Shown here one piece after another: positions 15,933-32,663 of a stretch of 64,000 bases of DNA (its first letter is position 1; every line of letters starts with the position of its first letter). Origin of the DNA: an uncultured Solirubrobacteraceae bacterium (GTDB lineage: Bacteria > Actinomycetota > Thermoleophilia > Solirubrobacterales > Solirubrobacteraceae); assembly GCA_964588985.1 (NCBI GenBank), contig CAZPQW010000001.1, positions 256,001 through 320,000 of the forward strand, written 5' to 3'. The notes under the pieces were generated by a model that saw only the letters and a program-made list of their open reading frames with translations, was not told the origin of the DNA and ran no database searches. A program made the position numbers and the translations under genes.

Positions 15933-16949
15933 ATCTTCCGCCTCTCCGTCCTCGACCAGTCCCCGATCTCCCAGGGCTTCTCCGGCGCGCAGGCGCTGCG
16001 CAACACGCTCGAGTTGGCGCGCCTGACCGACCGCCTCGGCTACCACCGCTACTGGGTCGCCGAGCACCATGGCGGGCCGATGCTCGCGGGGCCGAGCCCG
16101 GAGGCGCTGATCGGGCCGATCGCGGCCGCGACGAAGCACATCAGGGTGGGCAGCGGGGGCGTGATGCTGCCGCACTACAGCCCGTTCAAGGTCGCCGAGA
16201 CGTTCAGCCTGCTCGCCGGTCTGTTCCCCGGGCGCATCGACCTCGGGCTGGGACGCGCCGCGGGTACCGACCCGCTGACCACGTACGCCCTGCAGCGCGA
16301 CAGGCGCCAGGCGACACCGGACGACTTTCCCCAACAGCTCGAGGAGCTGTTGGGCTATCTATATGACCGCCTCCCGAGTGACCACCCGTTCGCGCGGCTG
16401 GCGAAGATGCTCCCCGGTCTCCCGGAGCGTCCTGAGCCGTGGCTGTTGGGCTCCTCGCCGCAGAGCGCGCTGTGGGCCGCGGAGCTGGGACTGCCTTACG
16501 CGTTCGCGGACTTCATCAACCCGCGCGGAGCGGAGATCACGGCGCTCTACCGCGAGCGCTTCGCCGAACACGAACACGAGGGCCTGCACCCGCGTACGGC
16601 GGTGGCGGTGTGGACGATCTGCGCCGAGACCGACGAGGAGGCGCGGCGGCTGGCGGCGAGCGGGCGGATGACGTTCACGCTGCTGCGCCGCGGGCAGCTG
16701 ATCGCGGTGCCGCCGCCCGAGGAGGCGCTGCGGTTCCTCGAAGCCGACGACCGCTCCGCCGCGGGGCCGCGCTCGGAGCGACGCGCGGTCCTCGGTGCGC
16801 CGGCGACGGTGCGCGCGGAGCTCGAGGACGTGGTCGCCCGCTACGGCGCGGAGGAGGCGATCATCGTGTCGATCACCTACGACCACCTCGCGCGCATGCG
16901 CTCGTACGAGCTGCTCGCCGAGGCGTGCGGGTGCGAGTCGCGCCCATAG
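15933..16949 (+). CDS. luciferase-like (LLM class) flavin-dependent oxidoreductase; start codon apparently ATC
   Basis: RLSVLDQSP lies upstream of the ORF-track start; YWVAEHH, RVGSGGVML, GRIDLGLGRA. Confidence 0.88.
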   Translation: MFRLSVLDQSPISQGFSGAQALRNTLELARLTDRLGYHRYWVAEHHGGPMLAGPSPEALIGPIAAATKHIRVGSGGVMLPHYSPFKVAETFSLLAGLFPGRIDLGLGRAAGTDPLTTYALQRDRRQATPDDFPQQLEELLGYLYDRLPSDHPFARLAKMLPGLPERPEPWLLGSSPQSALWAAELGLPYAFADFINPRGAEITALYRERFAEHEHEGLHPRTAVAVWTICAETDEEARRLAASGRMTFTLLRRGQLIAVPPPEEALRFLEADDRSAAGPRSERRAVLGAPATVRAELEDVVARYGAEEAIIVSITYDHLARMRSYELLAEACGCESRP

Positions 16950-16956
16950 AGGGCTC

Positions 16957-17976
16957 ATGCACGCCGAGCGACTGACCGCGCAGATGCTCGCCGGGCCGCC
17001 GGCGAGCGACCCGGTGGAGGTGACACGCAGGCTGCTCGCGGTGCAGGGGCAGGACCCGCGTGGAGCGCGGCTCGCGATCCGCGCGCGGAGCACCGGCCTC
17101 TCAGCGGCGGACGTCGATCGCGCGCTCACGGAGGACCGCTCGCTGCTGATCACGTGGGTGAACCGCGGCACTCTGCATCTGCTCGCGAGCGAGGACTACC
17201 CGTGGCTGCACGAGCTCACCGCGCCGACGCTGTTCACCGCCGCCGCGAGGCGCCTCGCGCAGGAGGGTGTCACGCCGGACGCGGCCGATCGCGCGGTGGC
17301 GGCGGTCGAGAGCTCGCTGGCCGAGGAGGGGCCGCTGAGCAGGCTGCAGCTGCGCGAGCGGATCGACGCCGTGGGTGTGCGCACGGAGGGGCAGGCGCTG
17401 GTGCACTTGCTGCTGCTCGCGACGCTGCGCGGGCTGACGGTGCGCGGGCCGATTGTGGAGGGGCAGCACGCGTATGTGCTCGTGCGCGACTGGCTAGGGG
17501 AATCCGCGCCGGTCGATCGCGAGCGCGCACTCGCGGAGCTCGCCCGCAGGTATCTCGTGGGTCACGCGCCGGCCGACGAGCGCGACCTCGCGAAGTGGGC
17601 GGGCCTGCCACTGCGCGACGCGCGCGCAGGCCTCGCCGCGATCGCGTCGCAGCTGCATCAGCGCGAGGACGGGCTCGTCGAGCTCACGGGTAGCGGTGCG
17701 CCCGCACCGCTACCGCCACCGCGCCTGCTCGGGTCGTTCGAGCCGGTGCTGCTCGGATGGCGCTCGCGCGCGGCGTTGCTGGGCGCGCACGAGCAGCGGC
17801 TCGTCACGAACAACGGCATCTTCCGCCCGTTCGCGATGGTGAACGGGCGCGCGGTCGCCGTGTGGAAGCTGTCGGCTGGGAAGGTCACCCTCGAGCCCTT
17901 CGCGCGGATCGCGGCGAAGGACGAGGCGGCGCTGCAGGCGGACGCCGAGGATGTCGTCCGCTTCCTCTCCCGTTAG
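16957..17976 (+). CDS. AlkZ/YcaQ-family (HTH_42) DNA glycosylase-like protein
   Basis: AVQGQD (QxQ motif), WVNRGTLHL, LARRYLVGHAPA...DLAKWAGL. Confidence 0.82.
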   Translation: MHAERLTAQMLAGPPASDPVEVTRRLLAVQGQDPRGARLAIRARSTGLSAADVDRALTEDRSLLITWVNRGTLHLLASEDYPWLHELTAPTLFTAAARRLAQEGVTPDAADRAVAAVESSLAEEGPLSRLQLRERIDAVGVRTEGQALVHLLLLATLRGLTVRGPIVEGQHAYVLVRDWLGESAPVDRERALAELARRYLVGHAPADERDLAKWAGLPLRDARAGLAAIASQLHQREDGLVELTGSGAPAPLPPPRLLGSFEPVLLGWRSRAALLGAHEQRLVTNNGIFRPFAMVNGRAVAVWKLSAGKVTLEPFARIAAKDEAALQADAEDVVRFLSR

Positions 17977-18521
17977 CCGGGGATCGCCACCCTCAGGATT
18001 GGGGCGCTCGTCGGGCTCGGGCTGCCACCGAGCGGCTCGGCGGTGACGAGCACGCTGCGCACGCCGCGCAGGCTGCCGGGGATCTGCACGTCGGCGCTAC
18101 CCGCTCTCGTGACCGTGAACAGCGCGTCGGTGGGTCGTGGCGGAGCGCCCGGTCGATCGAGCCAGAGCTCGTAGACCTCGCCGAACGGCGGCTCGGACAT
18201 CCGAGATATCTCCAGCTCCGTGCTGTGTCCGACACGTCGGAGCGAAACCACGGGGGCGCTTGCGCGCGCGCCGCTGTTCGGCGTTCCGGCGGGGTTTCCG
18301 CTTCTCAACGATCCGACCAGCGCAAGTGCACCGCTGAGCGCGAGCGCCGTGCAGACGAGGCCGCCCCCGGTCTGCATCGCACGCCGTCCGCGCACCGGCT
18401 TTCCCGGATCGCCATTGCCGCCGGCCGCCGCCAGTACGCGTCGACGAAGAGAGCCTGGTGCGATCACCCGCTGCGCGGGCACCTGAGCGGTGCTGCAAGA
18501 CGATCGTGTCGAGCGAAGCAT
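17973..18521 (-). CDS. stand-alone RskA C-terminal-domain protein (no ZAS domain)
   Basis: TM segment, then GEVYELWL...TDALFTV...VLVTAEPLGGSPSPTS, closely similar to the C-terminus of 22800-23519; start position uncertain. Confidence 0.75.
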   Translation of the reverse strand: MLRSTRSSCSTAQVPAQRVIAPGSLRRRVLAAAGGNGDPGKPVRGRRAMQTGGGLVCTALALSGALALVGSLRSGNPAGTPNSGARASAPVVSLRRVGHSTELEISRMSEPPFGEVYELWLDRPGAPPRPTDALFTVTRAGSADVQIPGSLRGVRSVLVTAEPLGGSPSPTSAPILRVAIPG

Positions 18522-18530
18522 CGAGTTCCC

Positions 18531-18556
18531 TACGCACAGCGCCCCGCGGTGGATCA
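18531..18556 (-). promoter_or_regulatory. ECF (SigK-like) promoter copy 1
   Basis: Minus strand TGATCC-accgcggggcgctgtg-CGTA, 9 nt before ATG 18521. Confidence 0.8.
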
Positions 18557-18602
18557 CTCCCGCGCTCAATCGCCGGCGACGCGCGCAATTAACACTCTCG
18601 AT

Positions 18603-18628
18603 TGATCCGTATTCGCGCTGACGGCGTA
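18603..18628 (+). promoter_or_regulatory. ECF (SigK-like) promoter copy 2
   Basis: TGATCC-gtattcgcgctgacgg-CGTA upstream of the first ferritin-like gene. Confidence 0.82.
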
Positions 18629-18697
18629 GTCACACCAAGCAAGGCTGACAGGGGGAGGTTTCCTCAGCCGACCTGCCAACCCCAACATGGGAGAGTC

Positions 18698-19390
18698 ATG
18701 ACTTACACGATCAACCTGGATGAGGTCGATGTTGACGGTGCGGTACGCGAGGCGGCGGACGACGTGTCGGGTGACACGCGACTGAGCTTCCTCAAGAAGG
18801 CCGGTGTCGCGGGCGGCGCGGCGATGAGCGGCGGCGCGACTCTGTCAGTGTTCGCGCCGAGCGCGTTCGCGGCAAGTCACGGTCGCCCGCCGGCGAAATT
18901 CGGTAAAGGTGACATCGGCATACTCAACTACGCGCTCACGCTCGAGTATCTCGAGGCGGCGTTCTACAACGGCGCAACCGCGGCGAACCTGCCGCTTAGC
19001 GCCCAGGCGAGCGCGTTCCTGAAGGTGGTCACCGCCGATGAGAACGCACACGTCGCGTTCCTCAAGAAGGCGCTCGGCAAAAAAGCCGTCGCGTCGCCGA
19101 AGTTCGACTTCAAAGGCTCCAACACCAACGCCGAAACGTTCATGAAGACCGCACAGGTCTTGGAGAACACGGGCGTGCACGCCTATTCGGGGCAGGCCCT
19201 CAACATCAAGTCGGCCACGTACGTCAAGGCAGCATTGTCGATCCTTACGATCGAGGCTCGCCACGCGAGCGTGATCGGGCTGCTGAACGACCCGACGGGC
19301 AAGGAAATCGCACCCGACGGCCCGTTCGACACACCGCTCACGGCGTCGAAGGTGCTCGCCGCGGTGAAGGCCACCGGCTTCGTCGTCTGA
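18698..19390 (+). CDS. ferritin-like (Ferritin_2/desiccation-related) protein 1 with Tat-type signal
   Basis: ILNYALTLEYLE, DENAH, LENTG, IEARH di-metal ligands; signal DTRLSFLKK...AFA. Confidence 0.9.
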   Translation: MTYTINLDEVDVDGAVREAADDVSGDTRLSFLKKAGVAGGAAMSGGATLSVFAPSAFAASHGRPPAKFGKGDIGILNYALTLEYLEAAFYNGATAANLPLSAQASAFLKVVTADENAHVAFLKKALGKKAVASPKFDFKGSNTNAETFMKTAQVLENTGVHAYSGQALNIKSATYVKAALSILTIEARHASVIGLLNDPTGKEIAPDGPFDTPLTASKVLAAVKATGFVV

Positions 19391-19434
19391 GTGCACGTGC
19401 GATTCCCGACAAACACGACGTGGAGGTAGTGAAG

Positions 19435-20124
19435 ATGTCAAGTGCAACCAGTGAGGACACGGCTCCGCAGCCGGCTGGGATCGTCGAGCGACTCGTGCGC
19501 GACGATCTCGACCGAAAGCGGTTCCTGAAGGTGGTCGGAAGCGCAGGCGCGGCGAGCTTCGGCGCGTTCGTGATGGCGGCGTGCGGCAGTTCCAGCAAGA
19601 CCGCCTCGACGGCAGCGGCGCCGACGACGACGTCGACCGCCACGACCGGCGGTGGCGGTGACATCGCGATCCTCAACTACGCGCTCACGCTCGAGTACCT
19701 CGAGACCGCGTTCTACGAGAAGGTGATCGCGGCGGAACTGTTCAGCGGCAAGGTCGGAGGTCTGCTCGAGGACTTCGGCCGTCAGGAGGCATCGCACGTG
19801 GTCGCGCTGAAAGCGGCTGTCAGCAAGCTCGGAGGCACGCCGGCCACGAAGCCGAACGCGAAGTTCCCGATCACGAGCGCCACACAGGTGGCCGAGCTCG
19901 CCTACACCGTCGAGAATCTCGGCGCGTCGGCGTATCTCGGGCAGGCGGCGAACATCCAGAGTCCCGAGGTCCTGGCCTCGGCGCTCGCGATCCACTCCGT
20001 CGAGGCGCGCCACGCGGCGACCCTCGGCACGCTGGTCAAGAAGTCGGTCTCTCCGGACGGGGCGTTCGCCAAGCCGGCTGACATGTCAACTGTGCTGGCG
20101 GCCGTCAAGCCGTTCCTGGCCTGA
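19435..20124 (+). CDS. ferritin-like protein 2, Tat-type lipoprotein
   Basis: DRKRFLK, lipobox MAAC, Ser/Thr linker; LEYLE, QEASH, VENLG, VEARH. Confidence 0.9.
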   Translation: MSSATSEDTAPQPAGIVERLVRDDLDRKRFLKVVGSAGAASFGAFVMAACGSSSKTASTAAAPTTTSTATTGGGGDIAILNYALTLEYLETAFYEKVIAAELFSGKVGGLLEDFGRQEASHVVALKAAVSKLGGTPATKPNAKFPITSATQVAELAYTVENLGASAYLGQAANIQSPEVLASALAIHSVEARHAATLGTLVKKSVSPDGAFAKPADMSTVLAAVKPFLA

Positions 20125-20152
20125 TCGCTGCTGGAAAAGGAGCACGAAAACG

Positions 20153-20809
20153 ATGTCCGACAAACAACTCACACATTCGAGCCGCGCTGCGCTCGCCAAT
20201 CCCGAGCTGGCCTCGCTGGAGGTGCACGGCATGACGCGCGGGAGCTTCATCCTGCGTGGCGCGCTCGCAGCGGGAGCGTTCTACGGAACCACGGCGGTGA
20301 CGCCGTTCGTCTCACAGGCGCTCGCCGAAACCGGTGGGGGTGACGTTGACATCCTCAACTTCGCGCTCACCCTCGAGTACCTCGAGGCCGACTTCTACAC
20401 GGTCAAGGGGAGGTCGCTGAAACTCAGCGGGCAGGCGAAGGCCTACGCGCAGCAGTTCGGCGAAGAGGAGGCAGAGCACGTCACGGCGCTGATCGCCGCG
20501 ATCAAACAGCTGGGCGGCACTGCGGTGAAGAAACCGCAGTTCGTGTTTCCGGCGAGCAGCGAGAGCTCGTTTCTGGCGCTCGCCTCGGTGCTGGAGAACA
20601 CCGGAGTGGGCGCCTACAACGGCGCTGCTCCCTCGCTTCAGAGCAAGCAGGTGCTTGCGGCTGCCGGCGGGATCGTGCAGATCGAGGCTCGTCACGCGGC
20701 GGCGATCGACCTGCTGATCGGCAAGAGCCCGACGCCGACCGAAGGGTTCGACACGCCGCTCACCAAGGCGCAGGTGCTCGCCAAGGCGGGGCCGCTGATC
20801 AAGGCCTAG
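20153..20809 (+). CDS. ferritin-like protein 3 with Tat-type signal
   Basis: MTRGSFILR...SQALA; LEYLE, EEAEH, LENTG, IEARH; AAGGAG RBS. Confidence 0.9.
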   Translation: MSDKQLTHSSRAALANPELASLEVHGMTRGSFILRGALAAGAFYGTTAVTPFVSQALAETGGGDVDILNFALTLEYLEADFYTVKGRSLKLSGQAKAYAQQFGEEEAEHVTALIAAIKQLGGTAVKKPQFVFPASSESSFLALASVLENTGVGAYNGAAPSLQSKQVLAAAGGIVQIEARHAAAIDLLIGKSPTPTEGFDTPLTKAQVLAKAGPLIKA

Positions 20810-20836
20810 CAAGTGAAGCAGTGGAGGGGTCGCGGG

Positions 20837-20862
20837 TGATCCGCCGGCGGCCCCTCCGCGTA
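20837..20862 (+). promoter_or_regulatory. ECF (SigK-like) promoter copy 3
   Basis: TGATCC-gccggcggcccctccg-CGTA upstream of tatA. Confidence 0.82.
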
Positions 20863-20900
20863 ATACCAACCAGAGTCAATCTCAGGAGGCAACACCAATC

Positions 20901-21119
20901 ATGGGTCTCGACAATCCAATCCACATCGCATTTCTGCTGATCCTGCTGCTGCTCGTGTTCGGCGCCAAGCGCCTGCCGGAGATGGGCAAATCGCTCGGCA
21001 CCGGAATGCGCGGCTTCAAGGACGCGCTCAGCGGTGAGAGCGAGCCGGCGCCGCAGATCGCACACGAGCCGCAGGCAGTCGCTGTGGCTCCTGTTCCCGC
21101 CGAGAAGATCGCCGCCTGA
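20901..21119 (+). CDS. tatA: twin-arginine translocase TatA
   Basis: Short TM, FG hinge, AKRLPEMGKSLGTGMRGFK amphipathic helix; AGGAGG RBS. Confidence 0.95.
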   Translation: MGLDNPIHIAFLLILLLLVFGAKRLPEMGKSLGTGMRGFKDALSGESEPAPQIAHEPQAVAVAPVPAEKIAA

Positions 21120-21121
21120 TC

Positions 21122-22093
21122 ATGGCGGTTGCCGTCGGCAGGATCGGGCACGAAGATCGGGTCAGCCTGGTCGACCATCTGCAGGAGCTGCGCGGCCGTC
21201 TGATCATCTCGCTGGTCGCGGTAGCGGTGACGTTCGCGCTGTGCATGTGGCAGAACCACGCGCTGTTGAACATCATCAACGAGCCGCTCTCGCACGAGAC
21301 GCAAAAGCAGGTGAAGGCGGGCAACGGGCCGCTCGGCGCGACGTACACCGTCCAACAGAACGCGCGTGCGCTCGCCACCGAGCTGCAGGTGGTGGTGGGC
21401 GTGCTGGGGCGGCCCGGCAGCGGCGCCTCGCCCGCGGCCCGCGCAGCACTGGCGCCGGTCGCACCGCAGCTGCAGCGCCAGATCGCGAGTCTCTCGGCTC
21501 CGCCGCAGGGCAACAAGCCGGTGACGCTCGGGATCGGCGAGCCGTTCACCACGACGATCGGCATCGCGCTGATCTTCGCGTTGATCCTCGCGCTCCCCGT
21601 GATCCTGTACGAGCTGTACGGATTCCTGCTGCCGGCTTTCAGTCCCGAGCAGCGCAGCGTGACGACGCCCCTGATGCTGGCGATCCCGTTCCTGTTCGTG
21701 GCGGGTGTGCTGTTCGGGTACTTCGTGGTGCTCCCGGCGGCGGTGCGCTTCTTTCAGAACTTCAACAGCGGCCAGTTCAACGTGCTGGTGCAGGCCAACC
21801 AGTACTACCACTTCGCCGCGGTGACACTGCTGGCGATGGGACTCGTCTTCCAGGTTCCCGTCGGCATTCTCGCGGCCACTCGCGCGGGAGTCGTGACGAC
21901 GCGCCAGCTGCGCCACAACCGCCGCTATGCGATCCTCGCGTGCGGCGCGGTGGCGGCGTTCCTCCCCGGCGATGCGGTCACACTCGTCCTCGAGACGGTT
22001 CCGCTGTACCTGCTGTTCGAGCTGAGCGTTCTGATCGCCAGGTTCATCGAGCACCGCGAAGCCCGCCGGACGGCCGCAGATGCACTCCGATGA
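21122..22093 (+). CDS. tatC: twin-arginine translocase TatC
   Basis: SLVDHLQELRGRL, LPVILYELYGFLLPA, FGYFVVLPAA, GLVFQVP, PLYLLFELS. Confidence 0.95.
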   Translation: MAVAVGRIGHEDRVSLVDHLQELRGRLIISLVAVAVTFALCMWQNHALLNIINEPLSHETQKQVKAGNGPLGATYTVQQNARALATELQVVVGVLGRPGSGASPAARAALAPVAPQLQRQIASLSAPPQGNKPVTLGIGEPFTTTIGIALIFALILALPVILYELYGFLLPAFSPEQRSVTTPLMLAIPFLFVAGVLFGYFVVLPAAVRFFQNFNSGQFNVLVQANQYYHFAAVTLLAMGLVFQVPVGILAATRAGVVTTRQLRHNRRYAILACGAVAAFLPGDAVTLVLETVPLYLLFELSVLIARFIEHREARRTAADALR

Positions 22094-22147
22094 CCGCGAC
22101 CGCCGGCTCCGCTGGCATCGGTGGGAGGATCCTCGCGCGTGGATGAG

Positions 22148-22173
22148 TGATCCAAACGCGGGTATCTGCCGTA
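22148..22173 (+). promoter_or_regulatory. ECF (SigK-like) promoter copy 4 (autoregulatory)
   Basis: TGATCC-aaacgcgggtatctgc-CGTA just before the sigma gene ATG. Confidence 0.85.
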
Positions 22174-22176
22174 ACC

Positions 22177-22803
22177 ATGACGAGCATGTTCAATCCCTTG
22201 CGTCCAGCTGCTGGTGGAGGAGATTCGGTGGAGCGGCTGCGCGTGCTCGCGGACGAGGAGCTCATGCAGCTCGTTTACAGGAGCCGAGCGGACGCGTTCG
22301 AGGTCATCTATGACCGTCATGCCGACGCCGCCTTCTCGCTCGCCCTGCGCATCTGCGGCCAGCGTGCGCTTGCCGAGGATGTCGTGCAGGAGGCGTTCCT
22401 GTCGTTGTGGCGCAGCCAGGCGCACTACGACCGCGGCCGCGGGAGCGTGCGCACCTGGCTGCTCGGCATCGTGCACAACCGCGCGATCGACGCGTTGCGC
22501 AGACGCGCAGTGCGCGAGCGCGGGATCGTCGACGAAGAGGGACTTGAGGAGCGAGTCGCCTCGCCCGAGCGCACAGACCTGGAGTTCGCGCGCCGCGAGG
22601 AGGCGCGCCAGGTCCGCGACGCGCTCGAGCAACTGCCCGGGGAGCAGAGCCGGGTGATCGAGCTCGCTTACTTCGGCGGTCTCACACACGTCCAGATCGC
22701 GTCGATGCTCGACACGCCGGTGGGAACGATCAAGGGCCGCATGCGTCTCGGTCTTTCGAAGATGCGCATCACGCTCGGCGACCCGGCGGAGGCGGCGCGA
22801 TGA
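22177..22803 (+). CDS. SigK-like ECF sigma factor
   Basis: AEDVVQEAFLSLWR...YDRGRGSVRTWLLGIVHNRAID; IELAYFGGLTHVQIA...PVGTIKGRMRLGL. Start may be 22177 or 22186. Confidence 0.92.
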   Translation: MTSMFNPLRPAAGGGDSVERLRVLADEELMQLVYRSRADAFEVIYDRHADAAFSLALRICGQRALAEDVVQEAFLSLWRSQAHYDRGRGSVRTWLLGIVHNRAIDALRRRAVRERGIVDEEGLEERVASPERTDLEFARREEARQVRDALEQLPGEQSRVIELAYFGGLTHVQIASMLDTPVGTIKGRMRLGLSKMRITLGDPAEAAR

Positions 22804-23519
22804 GCCCCGACGAGATCGACATCCACATGGACGGCTGCGGCGTGGACGCCGCGCCATACGTGCTCGGATCGCTCACCGACCAGGAGGTCGAGACGTTCAA
22901 GGCCCACCTCGCGACGTGCGCGGTCTGCCGCGAGGAAGTGGCCGCGCTGCAGACGATCGTGTCGACGCTGCCCGCCGCAGCCCCCCAGGTGCAGGCGCCC
23001 ACGGAGCTCAAGCAGAGGGTGCTCGCCACCGTGCGACAGGAGGTCAGCCTGCACGGGGGCCCGGCCACATCAGGCGGAGCAAGGACCGGACGCAAGCCGT
23101 CACGGTCGTGGCTCGGATGGCGCCCGGCGCTCGCCGGTGTCGGCGTGGCGGCGGTCGTCGCGGTGGTTCTCGCGATTGCGCTTGCTCCGGGAGGAGGCGG
23201 CGGCGCTACGCGCACGATTCAGGCCGAAGTGCTCGCCCCGCGCGCGAGCGCGACGTTGCGGGTGAGCGACGGTCACGCCGAACTGAACATCGCCCGCATG
23301 CCGCAGACGACGCCCGGCCGCGTGTATGAGGTGTGGATTCAGCGCAGCGGACCGCCGCAGCCCACGAACGCGCTGTTCACCGTCAGCCGCGCAGGCGACG
23401 CCACCGTCGGCGTGCCCGGAGCGATCGCCGGCGTGAAGGTGGTCATGGTCACCTCCGAGCCGCGAGGCGGCAGCGCCGTCCCTACGCGCTCGCCTGTGAT
23501 CGTCGCGCACGTCAGCTGA
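22800..23519 (+). CDS. RskA-like anti-sigma factor (ZAS, TM, extracytoplasmic RskA_C)
   Basis: APYVLGSL...HLATCAVC, one TM, VYEVW and VTSEPRGGS motifs; ATGA overlap with the sigma gene. Confidence 0.9.
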   Translation: MSPDEIDIHMDGCGVDAAPYVLGSLTDQEVETFKAHLATCAVCREEVAALQTIVSTLPAAAPQVQAPTELKQRVLATVRQEVSLHGGPATSGGARTGRKPSRSWLGWRPALAGVGVAAVVAVVLAIALAPGGGGGATRTIQAEVLAPRASATLRVSDGHAELNIARMPQTTPGRVYEVWIQRSGPPQPTNALFTVSRAGDATVGVPGAIAGVKVVMVTSEPRGGSAVPTRSPVIVAHVS

Positions 23520-23730
23520 CAGCGGTCACGAGCAGCTCCTCATCGCCCACGCGCACCGTGTCGCCGCGAGCGAGCTGGCGCCCGCGTCTGTCCTCGCGCT
23601 CGCCGTTGACCCACACGGGCTCGGTCGCGAGCAGCGCCTTGGCCTCGCTGCCGCTGTCGATCAGTCCGGCGAGCTTGAGCAGCTGACCGAGCCGGATCTT
23701 CTCCTCCCTGATCGGGATCTCGCGAGCCAT
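23512..23730 (-). CDS. S4-domain RNA-binding protein (YbcJ/YaaA-like)
   Basis: IRLGQLLKLAGLIDSGSEAK...VWVNGEREDRRGRQL. Confidence 0.9.
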   Translation of the reverse strand: MAREIPIREEKIRLGQLLKLAGLIDSGSEAKALLATEPVWVNGEREDRRGRQLARGDTVRVGDEELLVTAVS

Positions 23731-23792
23731 CCGAGGAATCTAGCGCCCGGAAGAAGACGGCCGCTCGGAATGCGCTACTGTCGCGCTCAGCG

Positions 23793-24566
23793 ATGGGCGA
23801 GCGAAGCGAGTACACACCGGGAACGTTCTGCTGGACCGACCTGAGCGCCCCCGACCAGGCCGCCGCGAAGGCGTTCTACACCGCGCTGTTTGGCTGGAGC
23901 GCGGTCGACATGCCGGTCGGCGAGTCGGTCTACTCGATGATGCAGGTAGACGGCAAGACGGTCGCCGCGATCTCCCCGCAACCCCAGCAGCAGCGCGACG
24001 CGGGTATGCCCGCGATCTGGAACTCCTACATCTCGGTCGGTAGCGCCGACGCGGTCCTCGAGCGCGCGAAAGAGCTCGGCGGCTCGGCGCACACCCCCGC
24101 CTTCGACGTGTTGGACGCCGGTCGCATGGCGGTCATCCAGGACCCGCAGGGGGCGTACTTCCTGGTGTGGGAGCCGCGCGCGCGACCCGGCGCCGCGCTC
24201 GTGAACGCCCCCGGCGCGCTCGTGTGGAACGAGCTGCAGTCCCCCGACCTCGACGCCTCCGCGTCCTTCTACGGCGACCTCTTCGGCTGGGACGTCGCCC
24301 CGTTCGAAGGCATGGCGGATCGCTACCTGTCGATCAAAAACGCGAGTGCGAACAACGGCGGCATGCGCGAGCTCGCGCCCGGCACTCCGCCCAGCTGGCT
24401 CGTTTACTTCGGCGCCGAGGACATCGACGCGGCGCTCGCCAAGGTGCAGGAGCTCGGCGGCTCCAAGTTGGCCGGCCCGATCGACATCCAGATCGCGAAG
24501 ATCGCGGTCGTGCAGGATCCGCAGGGCGGCGTGTTCGCGCTCTACGCGGGCGCGCTCGAGCCCTAG
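23793..24566 (+). CDS. two-domain VOC/glyoxalase family protein (CFP32-like)
   Basis: PGTFCWTDL...FYTALFGW and PGALVWNEL...FYGDLFGW; DPQG twice. Confidence 0.9.
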   Translation: MGERSEYTPGTFCWTDLSAPDQAAAKAFYTALFGWSAVDMPVGESVYSMMQVDGKTVAAISPQPQQQRDAGMPAIWNSYISVGSADAVLERAKELGGSAHTPAFDVLDAGRMAVIQDPQGAYFLVWEPRARPGAALVNAPGALVWNELQSPDLDASASFYGDLFGWDVAPFEGMADRYLSIKNASANNGGMRELAPGTPPSWLVYFGAEDIDAALAKVQELGGSKLAGPIDIQIAKIAVVQDPQGGVFALYAGALEP

Positions 24567-31523: not shown

Positions 31524-32663
31524 ATGTCTGAGATCGACCATCCGCAGGATGTGGGGGATAGCCTGCGGCAATCCGATGGGTCACGATTCGCCTGGCCCGA
31601 GATCGACCGGCGCTCGTTCCTGCGTCGAACCGCATTGACAGGTGTGGCCGCGGGCTCGGTGAGCACCATCCTCAGCGCATGTGGCTCGGGGGGCGCGAGT
31701 TCCACCAACGCCAGTGGCGGTGGCGGTGGCGGTGGTGCATCGGGCGTGTTCGGCTCGAGCAAGAAATACAAATTCGTGTTCGTCAACCACGTGACGACGA
31801 ACCCGTTCTTCACTCCCACGCAGTACGGGGCGGCGGACGCGTGCAAGCTGCTGGGATGTGAATACCAGTGGACGGGCTCGGAAAACAGCAACGTCAGCCA
31901 GATGGTCAACGCTCTCAACAGCGCCGTGACGAGTGGCGCCGACGGCATCGCGGTCGCGCTGATCGACCTGCACGCGTTCAACGCACCGGTCGAAGCGGCT
32001 ATCAAGGCGGGCATACCGGTGGTCGCCTACAACGCGGATGCGGTCGGCAACGGTCGGCTTGCCTACATCGGCCAGGACCTGTTCAAGGCCGGCGAAGAAA
32101 TGGGCAAGAGGATCGTCGCGGCCGTCGGCTCAGGTGAAGTGGGGCTGTTCATCGCGACTCCGGGCTCGGCGAATCTGCAGCCGCGCATCGAAGGCGCCGA
32201 AAAGGCGATCAAGGACTCAGGCAAGCCGATTACCGCGAAGACGGTCGCGACCGGCGCCGCGGTGGCGCAGGAGCAGCCGGCGATCGAAGCCTGGTATCTC
32301 GGGCACAAGAACGCGAAGGGAATGTACGCGGTCGACGGTGGCAGTACCGAAAGCCTCGCCAAAGTGATGCAGAAGCTTGGCTTGGCGGCCAAAGGCGTCA
32401 AGGCGGGTGGGTTCGACCTCACCGAACAGACCCAGAAGCTGCTGCAGGAAGGCAACATCGAATTCACGATCGACCAGCAGCCTTATCTGCAGGGGTTCAT
32501 CCCGATCCTGCAGCTGTACATGTACAAGGTATCGGGCACGCTGACCGGACTGGCCGAAACGGACACCGGCCTGAAGTTCCTCGACAAGACCACCGTGGAC
32601 CCGTACGTCAAAACGAAATCCCGCTACGAGGGAACCTCCTCGTCGGTCGCGGCGATCGCCTGA
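31524..32663 (+). CDS. sugar ABC transporter substrate-binding lipoprotein (Tat signal)
   Basis: IDRRSFLRR, lipobox LSAC, NPFF, IDQQPYLQG. Confidence 0.92.
   Translation: MSEIDHPQDVGDSLRQSDGSRFAWPEIDRRSFLRRTALTGVAAGSVSTILSACGSGGASSTNASGGGGGGGASGVFGSSKKYKFVFVNHVTTNPFFTPTQYGAADACKLLGCEYQWTGSENSNVSQMVNALNSAVTSGADGIAVALIDLHAFNAPVEAAIKAGIPVVAYNADAVGNGRLAYIGQDLFKAGEEMGKRIVAAVGSGEVGLFIATPGSANLQPRIEGAEKAIKDSGKPITAKTVATGAAVAQEQPAIEAWYLGHKNAKGMYAVDGGSTESLAKVMQKLGLAAKGVKAGGFDLTEQTQKLLQEGNIEFTIDQQPYLQGFIPILQLYMYKVSGTLTGLAETDTGLKFLDKTTVDPYVKTKSRYEGTSSSVAAIA

Follow-up and report, generated by a model that had tools for sequence, protein, structure and literature searches.

The locus described here is best introduced through the phoD-tatAd-tatCd operon of Bacillus subtilis, which is induced by phosphate starvation and in which a second system for twin-arginine translocation (Tat) is encoded beside its cargo, PhoD, itself furnished with an ordinary twin-arginine tag. 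Our locus occupies positions 17973-23519 of a 64,000-nucleotide stretch of DNA (henceforth the window; positions 256,001 to 320,000 of contig CAZPQW010000001.1, assembly GCA_964588985.1) from an uncultured Solirubrobacteraceae bacterium. It combines three Ferritin_2 genes (fer1, fer2 and fer3) with tatA and tatC, the genes of an extracytoplasmic function (ECF) sigma factor and its anti-sigma factor, and a further gene with an RskA_C domain. By analogy with TatAdCd and PhoD, this cassette would in kind be a cargo-dedicated second TatAC, and we consider it rather probable that it represents a portable, stress-switched export unit whose TatAC is dedicated to Fer tags lacking the second arginine of the canonical signal.

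The likeness to the B. subtilis system consists in a second, two-component TatA/TatC pair next to its cargo gene, and it would extend to the cargo as a metal-dependent phosphate-ester hydrolase if the Fer proteins were phosphatases like DRB0118 of Deinococcus radiodurans. The systems differ in that the Fer cassette has lost the contact between the second arginine and TatC Glu103 (E. coli numbering) on both the tag and the receptor side, possesses its own ECF sigma/anti-sigma pair rather than belonging to a global two-component regulon, and encodes three paralogues as cargo, among them one lipoprotein. We know of no description of a change at the Glu103 position for TatCd. According to the available text of a 2026 review (PMC13673990), the two operon-encoded Tat systems of B. 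subtilis run in parallel for specific substrates. The same text describes, in haloarchaea, a TatC paralogue without the conserved glutamate next to a Glu-keeping paralogue: TatCt, a fused double TatC with 14 helices in which F94 and E103 are both absent and which is interpreted as inactive in binding. The window TatC shares the absence of this glutamate beside a Glu-keeping paralogue, but it is a normal six-helix protein in which E15 and F94 are kept and only the Glu103 position is changed, and it is encoded together with cargo whose tags lack the matching arginine.

Full-text literature searches returned no description of a Ferritin_2-tatAC-ECF cassette. The sole earlier trace of the linkage that they returned is one line of the ECF classification (PMC7826278), in which an mttA/Hcf106 (TatA) gene is listed at position -1 of subgroup ECF19s27; the available text of that source names neither tatC nor a cargo for this subgroup.

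The eight genes that the initial annotation had placed in this interval are borne out by their open reading frames (ORFs) and Pfam matches. Together with the codon aligned with E. coli Glu103, they are:

17973-18521, minus strand: RskA_C-only membrane protein (Pfam RskA_C, E 1.2e-10)
18698-19390, plus strand: fer1, Ferritin_2 protein of 230 aa (ORF from 18602; Pfam E 5.7e-39, 133.9 bits)
19435-20124, plus strand: fer2, Ferritin_2 lipoprotein (Pfam E 9.3e-38, 129.9 bits)
20153-20809, plus strand: fer3, Ferritin_2 protein (Pfam E 2.2e-40, 138.4 bits)
20901-21119, plus strand: tatA, cargo-linked copy (Pfam TatA_B_E, E 6.3e-15)
21122-22093, plus strand: tatC, cargo-linked second copy, 323 aa (Pfam E 8.1e-51)
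21650-21652, plus strand: codon CAG for Gln177 of the cargo-linked TatC, aligned at E. coli TatC Glu103
22177-22803, plus strand: ECF sigma factor (Sigma70_r2 E 4.1e-20, r4_2 E 1.1e-12)
22800-23519, plus strand: anti-sigma factor (zf-HC2 E 2.7e-05, RskA_C E 9.7e-11)

All three Fer proteins pass the gathering cut-off of Ferritin_2 (PF13668, 24.7 bits). The cargo-linked TatC exceeds those of PF00902 (173.2 bits; cut-off 25.1) and TIGR00945 (161 bits; cut-off 132.7), and the cargo-linked TatA stays slightly below that of TIGR01411 (53.4 bits; cut-off 53.9). A GGGAGAG ribosome site precedes the fer1 start at 18698; for fer2, whose ORF is listed from GTG 19420, a GGAGG site ahead of ATG 19435 suggests the later start. 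The source genome (3.41 Mb in 48 contigs, 95.9% complete) holds two tatC, three tatA, three Ferritin_2 and two RskA_C genes, and every Ferritin_2 gene (3/3) and every RskA_C gene (2/2) sits in this locus. The initial annotation had held that its proposal would fail if this tatC were the only copy in the genome; a second tatC, 61% identical, is present on contig C13.

Export tags and the Glu103 position of TatC

The Tat tag consensus, S/T-R-R-x-F-L-K, contains both arginines. The tag of Fer1 reads TRLSFLKK (GDT-R-L-SFLKK) and is followed by a Gly/Ala-rich h-region and AFA-A; that of Fer2 reads DRKRFLKV, ahead of the lipobox VMAAC and a Ser/Thr-rich linker; and that of Fer3 reads TRGSFILR (T-R-G-SFILRG), with the cleavage site ALA-E. 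As read from the sequence, these tags combine a long n-region with an h-region of weak hydrophobicity, and their cleavage site is of the AxA or lipobox type. Each retains the first arginine, the phenylalanine and the Leu/Ile-Lys/Arg pair; in place of the second arginine stands Leu (Fer1), Lys (Fer2) or Gly (Fer3). The initial annotation had assigned export signals to all three proteins, and both the tags and the Fer2 lipobox are present, but the signals are not canonical twin-arginine tags. The loss of the second arginine and that of the glutamate in the linked TatC had both been missed by that earlier reader.

The departure from the consensus is a property of the orthologues as well. In their alignments (40 rows for Fer1, 25 each for Fer2 and Fer3) the first arginine is invariant, and the second is missing in 37/40 Fer1 rows (L 35, R 3, A 2), 23/25 Fer2 rows (K 23, R 2) and 25/25 Fer3 rows (S 20, A 3, G 2); the A-A-C-G lipobox of Fer2 is invariant in all 25 rows. 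Distant representatives of the family carry T-R-x-x-F-[LF]-[KR]-K, with a minority showing RR, in a rough classification in which part of the RR calls stem from the Lys-Lys position of TRxxFLRR tags and 70 of the 150 representatives are without an assessable N-terminus. Ordinary RR tags, suited to the other TatC, also exist in the source genome (three by a strict pattern). The corresponding strict single-Arg pattern has six matches in the genome, three of which are the Fer proteins, while the other three look like membrane or internal segments. One of the ordinary RR tags, the canonical twin-arginine lipoprotein tag IDRRSFLRR...LSAC, lies at about position 31605 of the window (C1:287605), some 8 kb downstream of the cassette.

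The n-region of Fer1 is an observation in its own right. Its residues 1-27 (18698-18778) follow a pattern of approximately L-x-x-[VL]-D-x-D-G-A-[IV]-R-E that is kept even at about 40% identity; such strong conservation is unusual for a signal peptide, and the structure model has low confidence in this part. This n-region could form a chaperone or receptor contact that substitutes for the second arginine.

The residue that faces the second arginine is known from a 2026 cryo-electron microscopy study of E. coli TatBC with substrate. As described in the available text (PMC13323110), the second arginine forms a salt bridge with E103, the first reaches E15 via water and stacks under F94, and E103A serves as a binding-negative control. 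F94 and E103 are stated to be highly conserved in bacteria and archaea (PMC13673990), and a further source, likewise available in part, reports that E103G and E103K inactivate E. coli TatC and that about 5% of species possess at least two tatC genes (PMC3827258).

In the cargo-linked TatC of the window this residue is Gln177. The HMMER alignment with the E. coli TatC chain 9dzz_A is ungapped between the conserved P-A and P-L, that is, across the signal-binding loop, where PAFSPEQRS in the window stands against PALYKHERR in E. coli and PALYSHEKR in Aquifex; the equivalents of E15 and F94 (HLQELR, YGF) are kept. The other TatC copy of the genome reads PALKPNERR and has kept its glutamate. We grouped TatC proteins of relatives by genomic context rather than by residue, with 48 Fer-linked sequences (within 8 kb of a Fer gene) on one side and, on the other, 36 sequences, each either the sole TatC in its genome or partnered there with a Fer-linked copy, from Solirubrobacterales only. 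At the Glu103 column the Fer-linked group has Q 37, H 6, E 3, R 1 and G 1, so that 45/48 are without Glu, whereas Glu is found in 36/36 of the sole or other copies. Among all alignable columns this one discriminates best between the groups (score 0.94, next 0.67). Second copies that are not located beside Fer1 also have Q at this position (7/7).

The first split of a TatC tree of 51 sequences, obtained by a quick LG+G4 search (all trees of the analysis are quick searches), separates two lineages (support 98, 98). Within each lineage the second copies group together as a single clade (99, 99) whose sister clade is of the Glu type (94, 91), and these second-copy and sister clades are nested in a grade of single-copy Glu-type TatCs. 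Forcing the 11 Glu-type partner copies of two-copy genomes into one clade costs 104.9 lnL in an approximately unbiased (AU) test (p-AU 3.6e-10); this group was chosen after inspection of the first tree, which limits the weight of the result. The simplest reading of these sequences would be two separate duplications, with Glu lost each time in the cargo-linked copy; gene conversion that spared the Glu103 residue would be an alternative to two duplications. Under either origin, selection would maintain the difference at the Glu103 column.

Two genomes, G015 and G027 (L128-L131), combine the lineages in another manner. Their Fer-linked TatC belongs to the second-copy clade of the window lineage, while their Glu-type TatC shares only 42% identity with the window TatC and groups with a distant single-copy TatC. 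The cassette has therefore evidently moved between genomes, and the sequences suggest horizontal transfer of the whole unit.

Two further observations concern TatC itself. In both TatC paralogues of the source genome the first external loop, which joins helices 1 and 2, is extended by about 68 residues (window 21293-21496, residues ~58-125, of the cargo-linked copy; also L001 1303-2391, minus strand); this insert is found in all sampled TatCs of the window family (matches of 819-879 nt), and sister families of the order are without it (621-624 nt). One genome, G079 (L142, L143), shows TatC matches on two contigs that agree in score and in loop sequence, possibly a case of contig duplication.

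Linkage of cargo and translocase among relatives

Conservation of the cassette was assessed in the best 80 of 588 confirmed Fer relatives (one genome per species scanned; 1.17 Mb in total), all 80 of which stem from Solirubrobacterales-type metagenome-assembled genomes. Sixty-one of these related loci have at least 4 kb on both sides (full-flank loci), and partner genes were counted within 8 kb. Among the 61, tatA or tatC is present in 44 (43 tatA, 39 tatC), a sigma/anti-sigma pair in 25 and a set of three Ferritin_2 genes in 19, the other 42 having one Ferritin_2 gene only; the RskA_C-only gene accompanies 4 of them, and 6 of the 80. The full set of three fer genes, tatA, tatC, sigma and anti-sigma genes occurs in 16/80 loci in at least three arrangements, with the sigma pair located downstream, divergently upstream, or shuffled together with inverted cargo genes. 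As several arrangements contain the same genes, the content has been kept through rearrangement. Of the synteny check that the initial annotation had proposed, the conservation of gene content is upheld and that of gene order is not, given that the position of the sigma pair varies.

The core of the cassette reappears in a second deep lineage, where TatC has about 253 aa and the unit is Fer1-tatA-tatC. In a sample of 101 genomes spread evenly over the class, for which counts alone are given since kin are not independent, nine genomes have two tatC genes, 85 have one and seven have none. Ferritin_2 is present in 9/9 of the two-tatC genomes vs 17/92 of the others, and in 8/9 one tatC has a Ferritin_2 match at a distance of no more than about 600 bp. 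More than 7,900 of the 8,000 candidates examined are relatives of Fer1 at E 1e-10 or better, and a search for close homologues of Fer1 returned only the names 'hypothetical' or 'ferritin-like domain'.

These counts bear on the idea that the Fer proteins are substrates of the Sec pathway, with the adjoining tatAC serving other cargo. Since the tags are without the defining second arginine, the idea has some appeal, but we regard it as extremely improbable: the rest of the Tat motif (T/S-R-x-x-F-L-K, the long n-region and the weakly hydrophobic, Gly/Ala-rich h-region) is conserved over hundreds of relatives; in two deep lineages tatA-tatC comes directly after Fer1 in the same orientation, a linkage that has survived rearrangements; and Ferritin_2 is present in every two-tatC genome of the class sample.

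A number of observations weigh against a dedicated, switched cassette as we propose it. Fer1 has none of its partners in 17/61 full-flank loci. Three Fer-linked TatCs (L061, L065, L081) keep Glu, though their Fer1 reads TRL. Among ten genomes with Fer1 and no tat gene within 8 kb, five (G111, G112, G113, G116, G120) have a Gln-type copy elsewhere; the other five (G114, G115, G117, G118, G119; the record of G115 is a complete chromosome) have a single Glu-type TatC, yet their Fer1 reads TRLxFLRK or TRASFLRK. The Ferritin_2 tags of three single-TatC genomes of the window family (G033, G045, G075) are single-Arg or Arg-Lys only. From tags of this kind in Glu-type-only genomes it follows that the tag came first and the dedicated receptor later, and that a Glu-type TatC or another route can evidently serve the tag. 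The loop-less lineage (L058-L090) usually has Fer1-tatA-tatC but no sigma pair, and the exact promoter motif described below is mostly absent there, three loci having it before Fer1; the switch is therefore an add-on of the window lineage, and the core consists of cargo and translocase. Outside Solirubrobacterales, TatCs of the class often have no Glu at the Glu103 column, even in single-copy genomes, in a part of the alignment that is less certain, and the loss of Glu could reflect relaxed selection rather than adaptation.

Two broader claims were dropped in view of these data. A strict one-to-one covariation of tag and receptor is rejected, because Fer tags without the second arginine occur in genomes with only a Glu-type TatC. 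The Glu/Gln contrast is likewise not extended to the whole class, since the loops of other orders diverge and cannot be aligned reliably at this column; it holds within Solirubrobacterales only. Examples of such differing loops after P-A are the TatCs of families f4, f6 and f10 (L132-L143, L158-L163), with G025, G083 and G097 having a single tatC without Glu; this reflects either an alignment shift or wider differences in Tat recognition across Thermoleophilia. As a separate matter, the sole TatC of G118 (L123, L126) is split into two adjoining frames, by a frameshift or an assembly error.

If the ordinary TatC can read such tags, the Gln-type copy might not be a receptor itself but might work in mixed complexes with Glu-type TatC, adding capacity or TatA-recruiting sites upon induction of the cargo, whose tags the ordinary TatC would read. 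Several facts fit this explanation: every examined genome with a Gln-type copy has exactly one Glu-type copy, the latter presumably handles second-Arg-less Fer tags where it is alone, and the available text of PMC13673990 reads the loss of F94 and E103 in haloarchaeal TatCt as an inactive site in need of a partner. We nevertheless judge it decidedly unlikely. Unlike TatCt, the Gln-type copies have kept the equivalents of E15, H12/L13 and F94, so that only the Glu103 position is systematically different; they always travel with their own tatA and cargo; and the pairing of a Gln-type copy with a distant Glu-type TatC (42% identical) in G015 and G027 suggests that it both moves and functions as one unit.

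Another possibility is that the cassette adds general Tat capacity under stress, the Gln being neutral drift and the oddity of the tags unrelated. It would accommodate the greater age of the tags, which occur without a second copy, the three Fer-linked TatCs that keep Glu, and the report that hydrophobic h-regions can compensate for a damaged RR motif (bioRxiv 10.1101/135103, available in part). This explanation is very unlikely in our view, because Glu was lost in the Fer-linked copy in two duplications and kept in 36/36 sequences elsewhere, at what is the top discriminating column. E103 substitutions inactivate E. coli TatC according to the parts available of PMC3827258 and PMC13323110, and a general booster would therefore be expected to keep Glu. 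We thus retain a TatAC dedicated to second-Arg-less Fer tags as the preferred reading.

Promoter motif and the sigma/anti-sigma pair

The four transcription units of the cassette are each preceded by TGATCC-N16-CGTA, in agreement with the initial annotation, which had noted one promoter motif ahead of every unit. The copies are:

18531-18556, minus strand: motif copy 1, GTGATCC-N16-CGTAGG, before the RskA_C-only gene
18603-18628, plus strand: motif copy 2, TTGATCC-N16-CGTAGT, 95 nt before the fer1 start
20837-20862, plus strand: motif copy 3, GTGATCC-N16-CGTAAT, before tatA
22148-22173, plus strand: motif copy 4, GTGATCC-N16-CGTAAC, directly ahead of the sigma gene

Four matches to TGATCC-N(15-17)-CGTA in the window compare with 0.13 expected, and 0/100 shuffles reach four. 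In the whole genome, both strands included, TGATCC-N16-CGTA has eight copies, four of which lie within 3.7 kb at this locus. The other four were considered as further targets and rejected, three of them lying inside long open frames and one being intergenic (C1:205503) without a credible downstream gene; as judged by the motif, the regulon is therefore the locus itself.

The motif also recurs in the related loci. Exact copies are located 77-111 nt upstream of Fer1 in 21/80 loci, 57-103 nt upstream of tatA in 18/54 tatA matches, and at the sigma start in 17/36 sigma matches; when the full scoring range is considered, 20/36 sigma matches have a copy, three of them 59-315 nt upstream. An equivalent of copy 1 is found upstream of the orthologue in 2/6 loci with the RskA_C-only gene. 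Altogether, 62/69 exact copies in the 80 loci fall between -60 and +330 nt relative to the start of a module gene (taken here as Fer1, Fer2, tatA, the sigma gene and the RskA_C-only gene), for the most part at fixed distances, and a few of them stand before Fer2 and the RskA_C-only gene. The same predicted motif hence stands before the cargo unit and the translocase unit and is kept in relatives, and its presence before each unit, together with this conservation, supports the proposal of a self-contained unit under one shared ECF-type promoter. A sigma-70 promoter scan of 17800-23900 gave no promoter-like site. A terminator scan of the same interval gave one terminator-like site, within fer3, which is fewer than in shuffles. 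The sequencing runs listed for window positions 18300-23600 are only DNA contigs labelled as rhizosphere or soil metagenome, with no RNA run among them.

Motif copy 4 overlaps the GTG at 22147 from which the sigma ORF is listed, and the later candidate starts, ATG 22177 or 22186, are a few bases past the -10 element. Because this copy overlaps the GTG start and precedes the sigma gene, an autoregulated, leaderless or near-leaderless transcript is probable. The ORF of the RskA_C-only gene is open up to 18569 on the minus strand; since motif copy 1 covers 18531-18556, ATG 18521 is its likely, near-leaderless start. A structural element accompanies copy 3: right after the fer3 stop, an inverted repeat of GGAGGGG (20823-20829) and CCCCTCC (20851-20857), with 7 bp arms 21 nt apart and no T-run after it, extends over the -35 element of the tatA promoter copy and the greater part of its spacer. 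From its sequence and position, it could be a read-through or attenuation element.

The initial annotation had compared the switch with mycobacterial SigK/RskA. An RskA-type sigma/anti-sigma pair is indeed present, but the sigma factor is not a SigK equivalog: the best NCBIfam models, PRK12519 (151 bits) and the SigK model PRK09646 (135.6 bits vs a cut-off of 226), both stay below their cut-offs. The protein contains one Cys only, in region 2, and not the redox cysteine pair of SigK (region 4), and its targets in the window would be Ferritin_2 proteins and tatAC, not fasciclin antigens. According to the supplementary text of the ECF classification (PMC7826278), such a cysteine pair is not defining for group ECF19, which part 8 of that text describes as mainly actinobacterial, with an RskA-like anti-sigma factor at +1 that has a zinc finger and one membrane helix. 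Predicted ECF19 promoters are given by the same source with ATC in the -35 and CG or TG in the -10 element, and TGATCC-N16-CGTA agrees with this pattern.

The anti-sigma factor of the cassette, whose start overlaps the stop codon of the sigma gene (ATGA), has a cytoplasmic zinc-finger domain (HxxxCxxC), a single membrane segment and an external RskA_C domain, and it surpasses the cut-off of NF052375 (109.4 bits vs 100). With an RskA-like, zinc-finger and one-helix anti-sigma factor at +1, a matching promoter pattern and a TatA-family gene nearby (at -1 in ECF19s27), the arrangement resembles what the available text lists for ECF19 and its subgroup ECF19s27. As judged from these sequence features, the sigma factor is RskA-partnered and ECF19-like. 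The RskA_C-only protein consists of a short cytoplasmic N-terminus, a single hydrophobic segment and an RskA_C domain, without a zinc finger; it shares 52% identity with the C-terminal domain of the anti-sigma factor over a stretch of 91 residues and is, by sequence, a paralogue of the outer or sensor domain of that protein.

Two genes flank the cassette:

16795-17976: AlkZ-like DNA glycosylase gene (E 1.3e-51)
23793-24566: two-domain glyoxalase-fold gene

In the closest related loci, genes for Lux-type monooxygenases, S4-domain proteins and glyoxalases are recurrent neighbours.

Nature of the cargo and meaning of the cassette

The full ligand set that had been noted for all three Ferritin_2 proteins, LEYLE / ExxH / E / EARH, is confirmed. 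The ligands of the dinuclear site (Glu in helix 1, ExxH in helix 2, Glu in helix 3, Asp/Glu in helix 4) are invariant in paralogues and orthologues, and they align with Glu51, Glu90, His93, Glu132 and Asp162 of RvFeMP-1. This tardigrade protein (RvY_06210, PDB 8kce) is the closest solved structure of Fer1 by sequence (E 5.3e-18) and also the best fold match of the Fer1 model, at 30% identity and with the next folds weak; the model has pLDDT >90 in the four-helix bundle and <50 in residues 1-60.

As described in the available text of PMC11616004, RvFeMP-1 has a dinuclear Zn/Mg site and acts as a metal-dependent phosphatase on sugar phosphates and nucleotides. D. radiodurans DRB0118 displays the same activity in vitro, and its mutant is cited there as having lowered desiccation survival. 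The only characterised Ferritin_2 members (RvFeMP-1/2 and DRB0118) are presented there as dinuclear-metal metabolite phosphatases. The Fer proteins belong to the same Pfam family and conserve the M1 ligands Glu, Glu and His. They carry Gly at the position of Asp135 of RvFeMP-1 (LENTG vs LENAD) and a second Glu on helix 1 (LEYLE has two), and in PMC11616004 DRB0118, too, is described with Gly at the Asp135 position and a compensating Glu, the second on helix 1; it is without an IgG-like domain and has a long signal region at its N-terminus, and the Fer proteins resemble it in all of these features. They differ from DRB0118 in the length of the mature part (about 170 residues vs 280), and from both proteins in forming a set of three paralogues with a private exporter and in the second ExxH, which is fully kept; its His is not a listed ligand in RvFeMP-1. 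The closest characterised relatives of the Fer proteins are thus dinuclear-metal phosphatases, not ferritins. By analogy with DRB0118, there is a faint indication that the Fer proteins may be metal-dependent hydrolases or protectants on the surface or periplasm side under desiccation-type stress; given the full second ExxH, redox chemistry may also be within their reach.

The initial annotation had instead envisaged that Fer1-3 assemble at the surface into a complex with di-iron or di-manganese centres, perhaps a hetero-oligomer anchored by the lipoprotein, for metal storage or for defence against peroxide or desiccation. In this reading, metal would be stored or peroxide destroyed by ferroxidase or catalase-like chemistry, and phosphate esters would not be the substrates. 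The full E / ExxH / E / ExxH set, including the second His, is typical of redox di-iron and di-manganese proteins, the Asp135 needed by RvFeMP-1 to act as a phosphatase is Gly in the Fer proteins, and members of the family dimerise (PMC11616004). We consider this interpretation unlikely all the same. Metal storage or peroxide defence does not match the metabolite phosphatases that make up the characterised part of the family, DRB0118 is a phosphatase in vitro in spite of its Gly, and the available text of PMC11616004 reports no ferroxidase or catalase activity for Ferritin_2. The Fer proteins are, moreover, monomers or dimers of about 170 residues rather than cage-forming ferritins. A hetero-oligomer is not required, as the predominance of loci with a single Ferritin_2 gene (42/61) indicates. 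Complex predictions of mature Fer1 and Fer3 with a Fer2 partner gave 0.29, 0.37 and 0.29 against a mark of 0.32, in a series without control predictions, and speak neither for nor against such a complex.

For the cassette as a whole we infer dependence on the sigma factor, export by Tat, selectivity for the cargo, loading with metal and enzymatic activity, and propose the following course of events. The ECF19-like sigma factor would be held at the membrane by its zinc-finger/RskA_C anti-sigma factor and, once released, would transcribe four units from TGATCC-N16-CGTA: the sigma and anti-sigma genes, the gene of the second RskA_C protein, fer1-fer2-fer3, and tatA-tatC. The small, DRB0118-like Ferritin_2 proteins with their dinuclear metal site would, most probably, fold and acquire their metal while still in the cytoplasm. 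Tat export suits proteins that are obliged to fold around metals there. The co-induced TatA and TatC would then carry the folded cargo over the membrane, where Fer2 would remain lipid-anchored and Fer1 and Fer3 would be released upon cleavage.

With no second arginine in the tags and Gln at the Glu103 position of the linked TatC, the second translocase can be read as dedicated to such tags and as poorly suited to ordinary RR cargo. It would provide a separate export lane for the induced cargo. The Gln would be a specialisation of a private translocase whose clients never show a second arginine, and it may insulate this translocase from the ordinary RR cargo of the same genome. In its most far-reaching form, the proposal amounts to a natural 'single-arginine' Tat pathway, in which a TatC duplicate that has twice independently lost Glu serves ferritin-like cargo with Leu, Lys or Ser at the second-arginine position as private receptor of an orthogonal lane, mobile between genomes as a cassette that includes the cargo and, in one lineage, a switch of its own; we put this form forward tentatively, as a serious possibility that falls short of being probable.

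Twin arginines and TatC Glu103 are regarded as near-invariant, and the cassette can therefore be viewed as a natural reciprocal experiment, in which a Glu-less receptor stands beside Arg-less cargo, with an ordinary receptor in the same cell, in a change that has arisen twice. It raises the testable question whether pairs of Tat signal and receptor can be re-coded for orthogonal export lanes, which would be useful for the secretion engineering of folded proteins. The carriers of the cassette are abundant, mostly uncultured soil actinobacteria, and in them the cassette connects the Ferritin_2 family, which is poorly understood and associated with desiccation, with a defined regulator and route of export.

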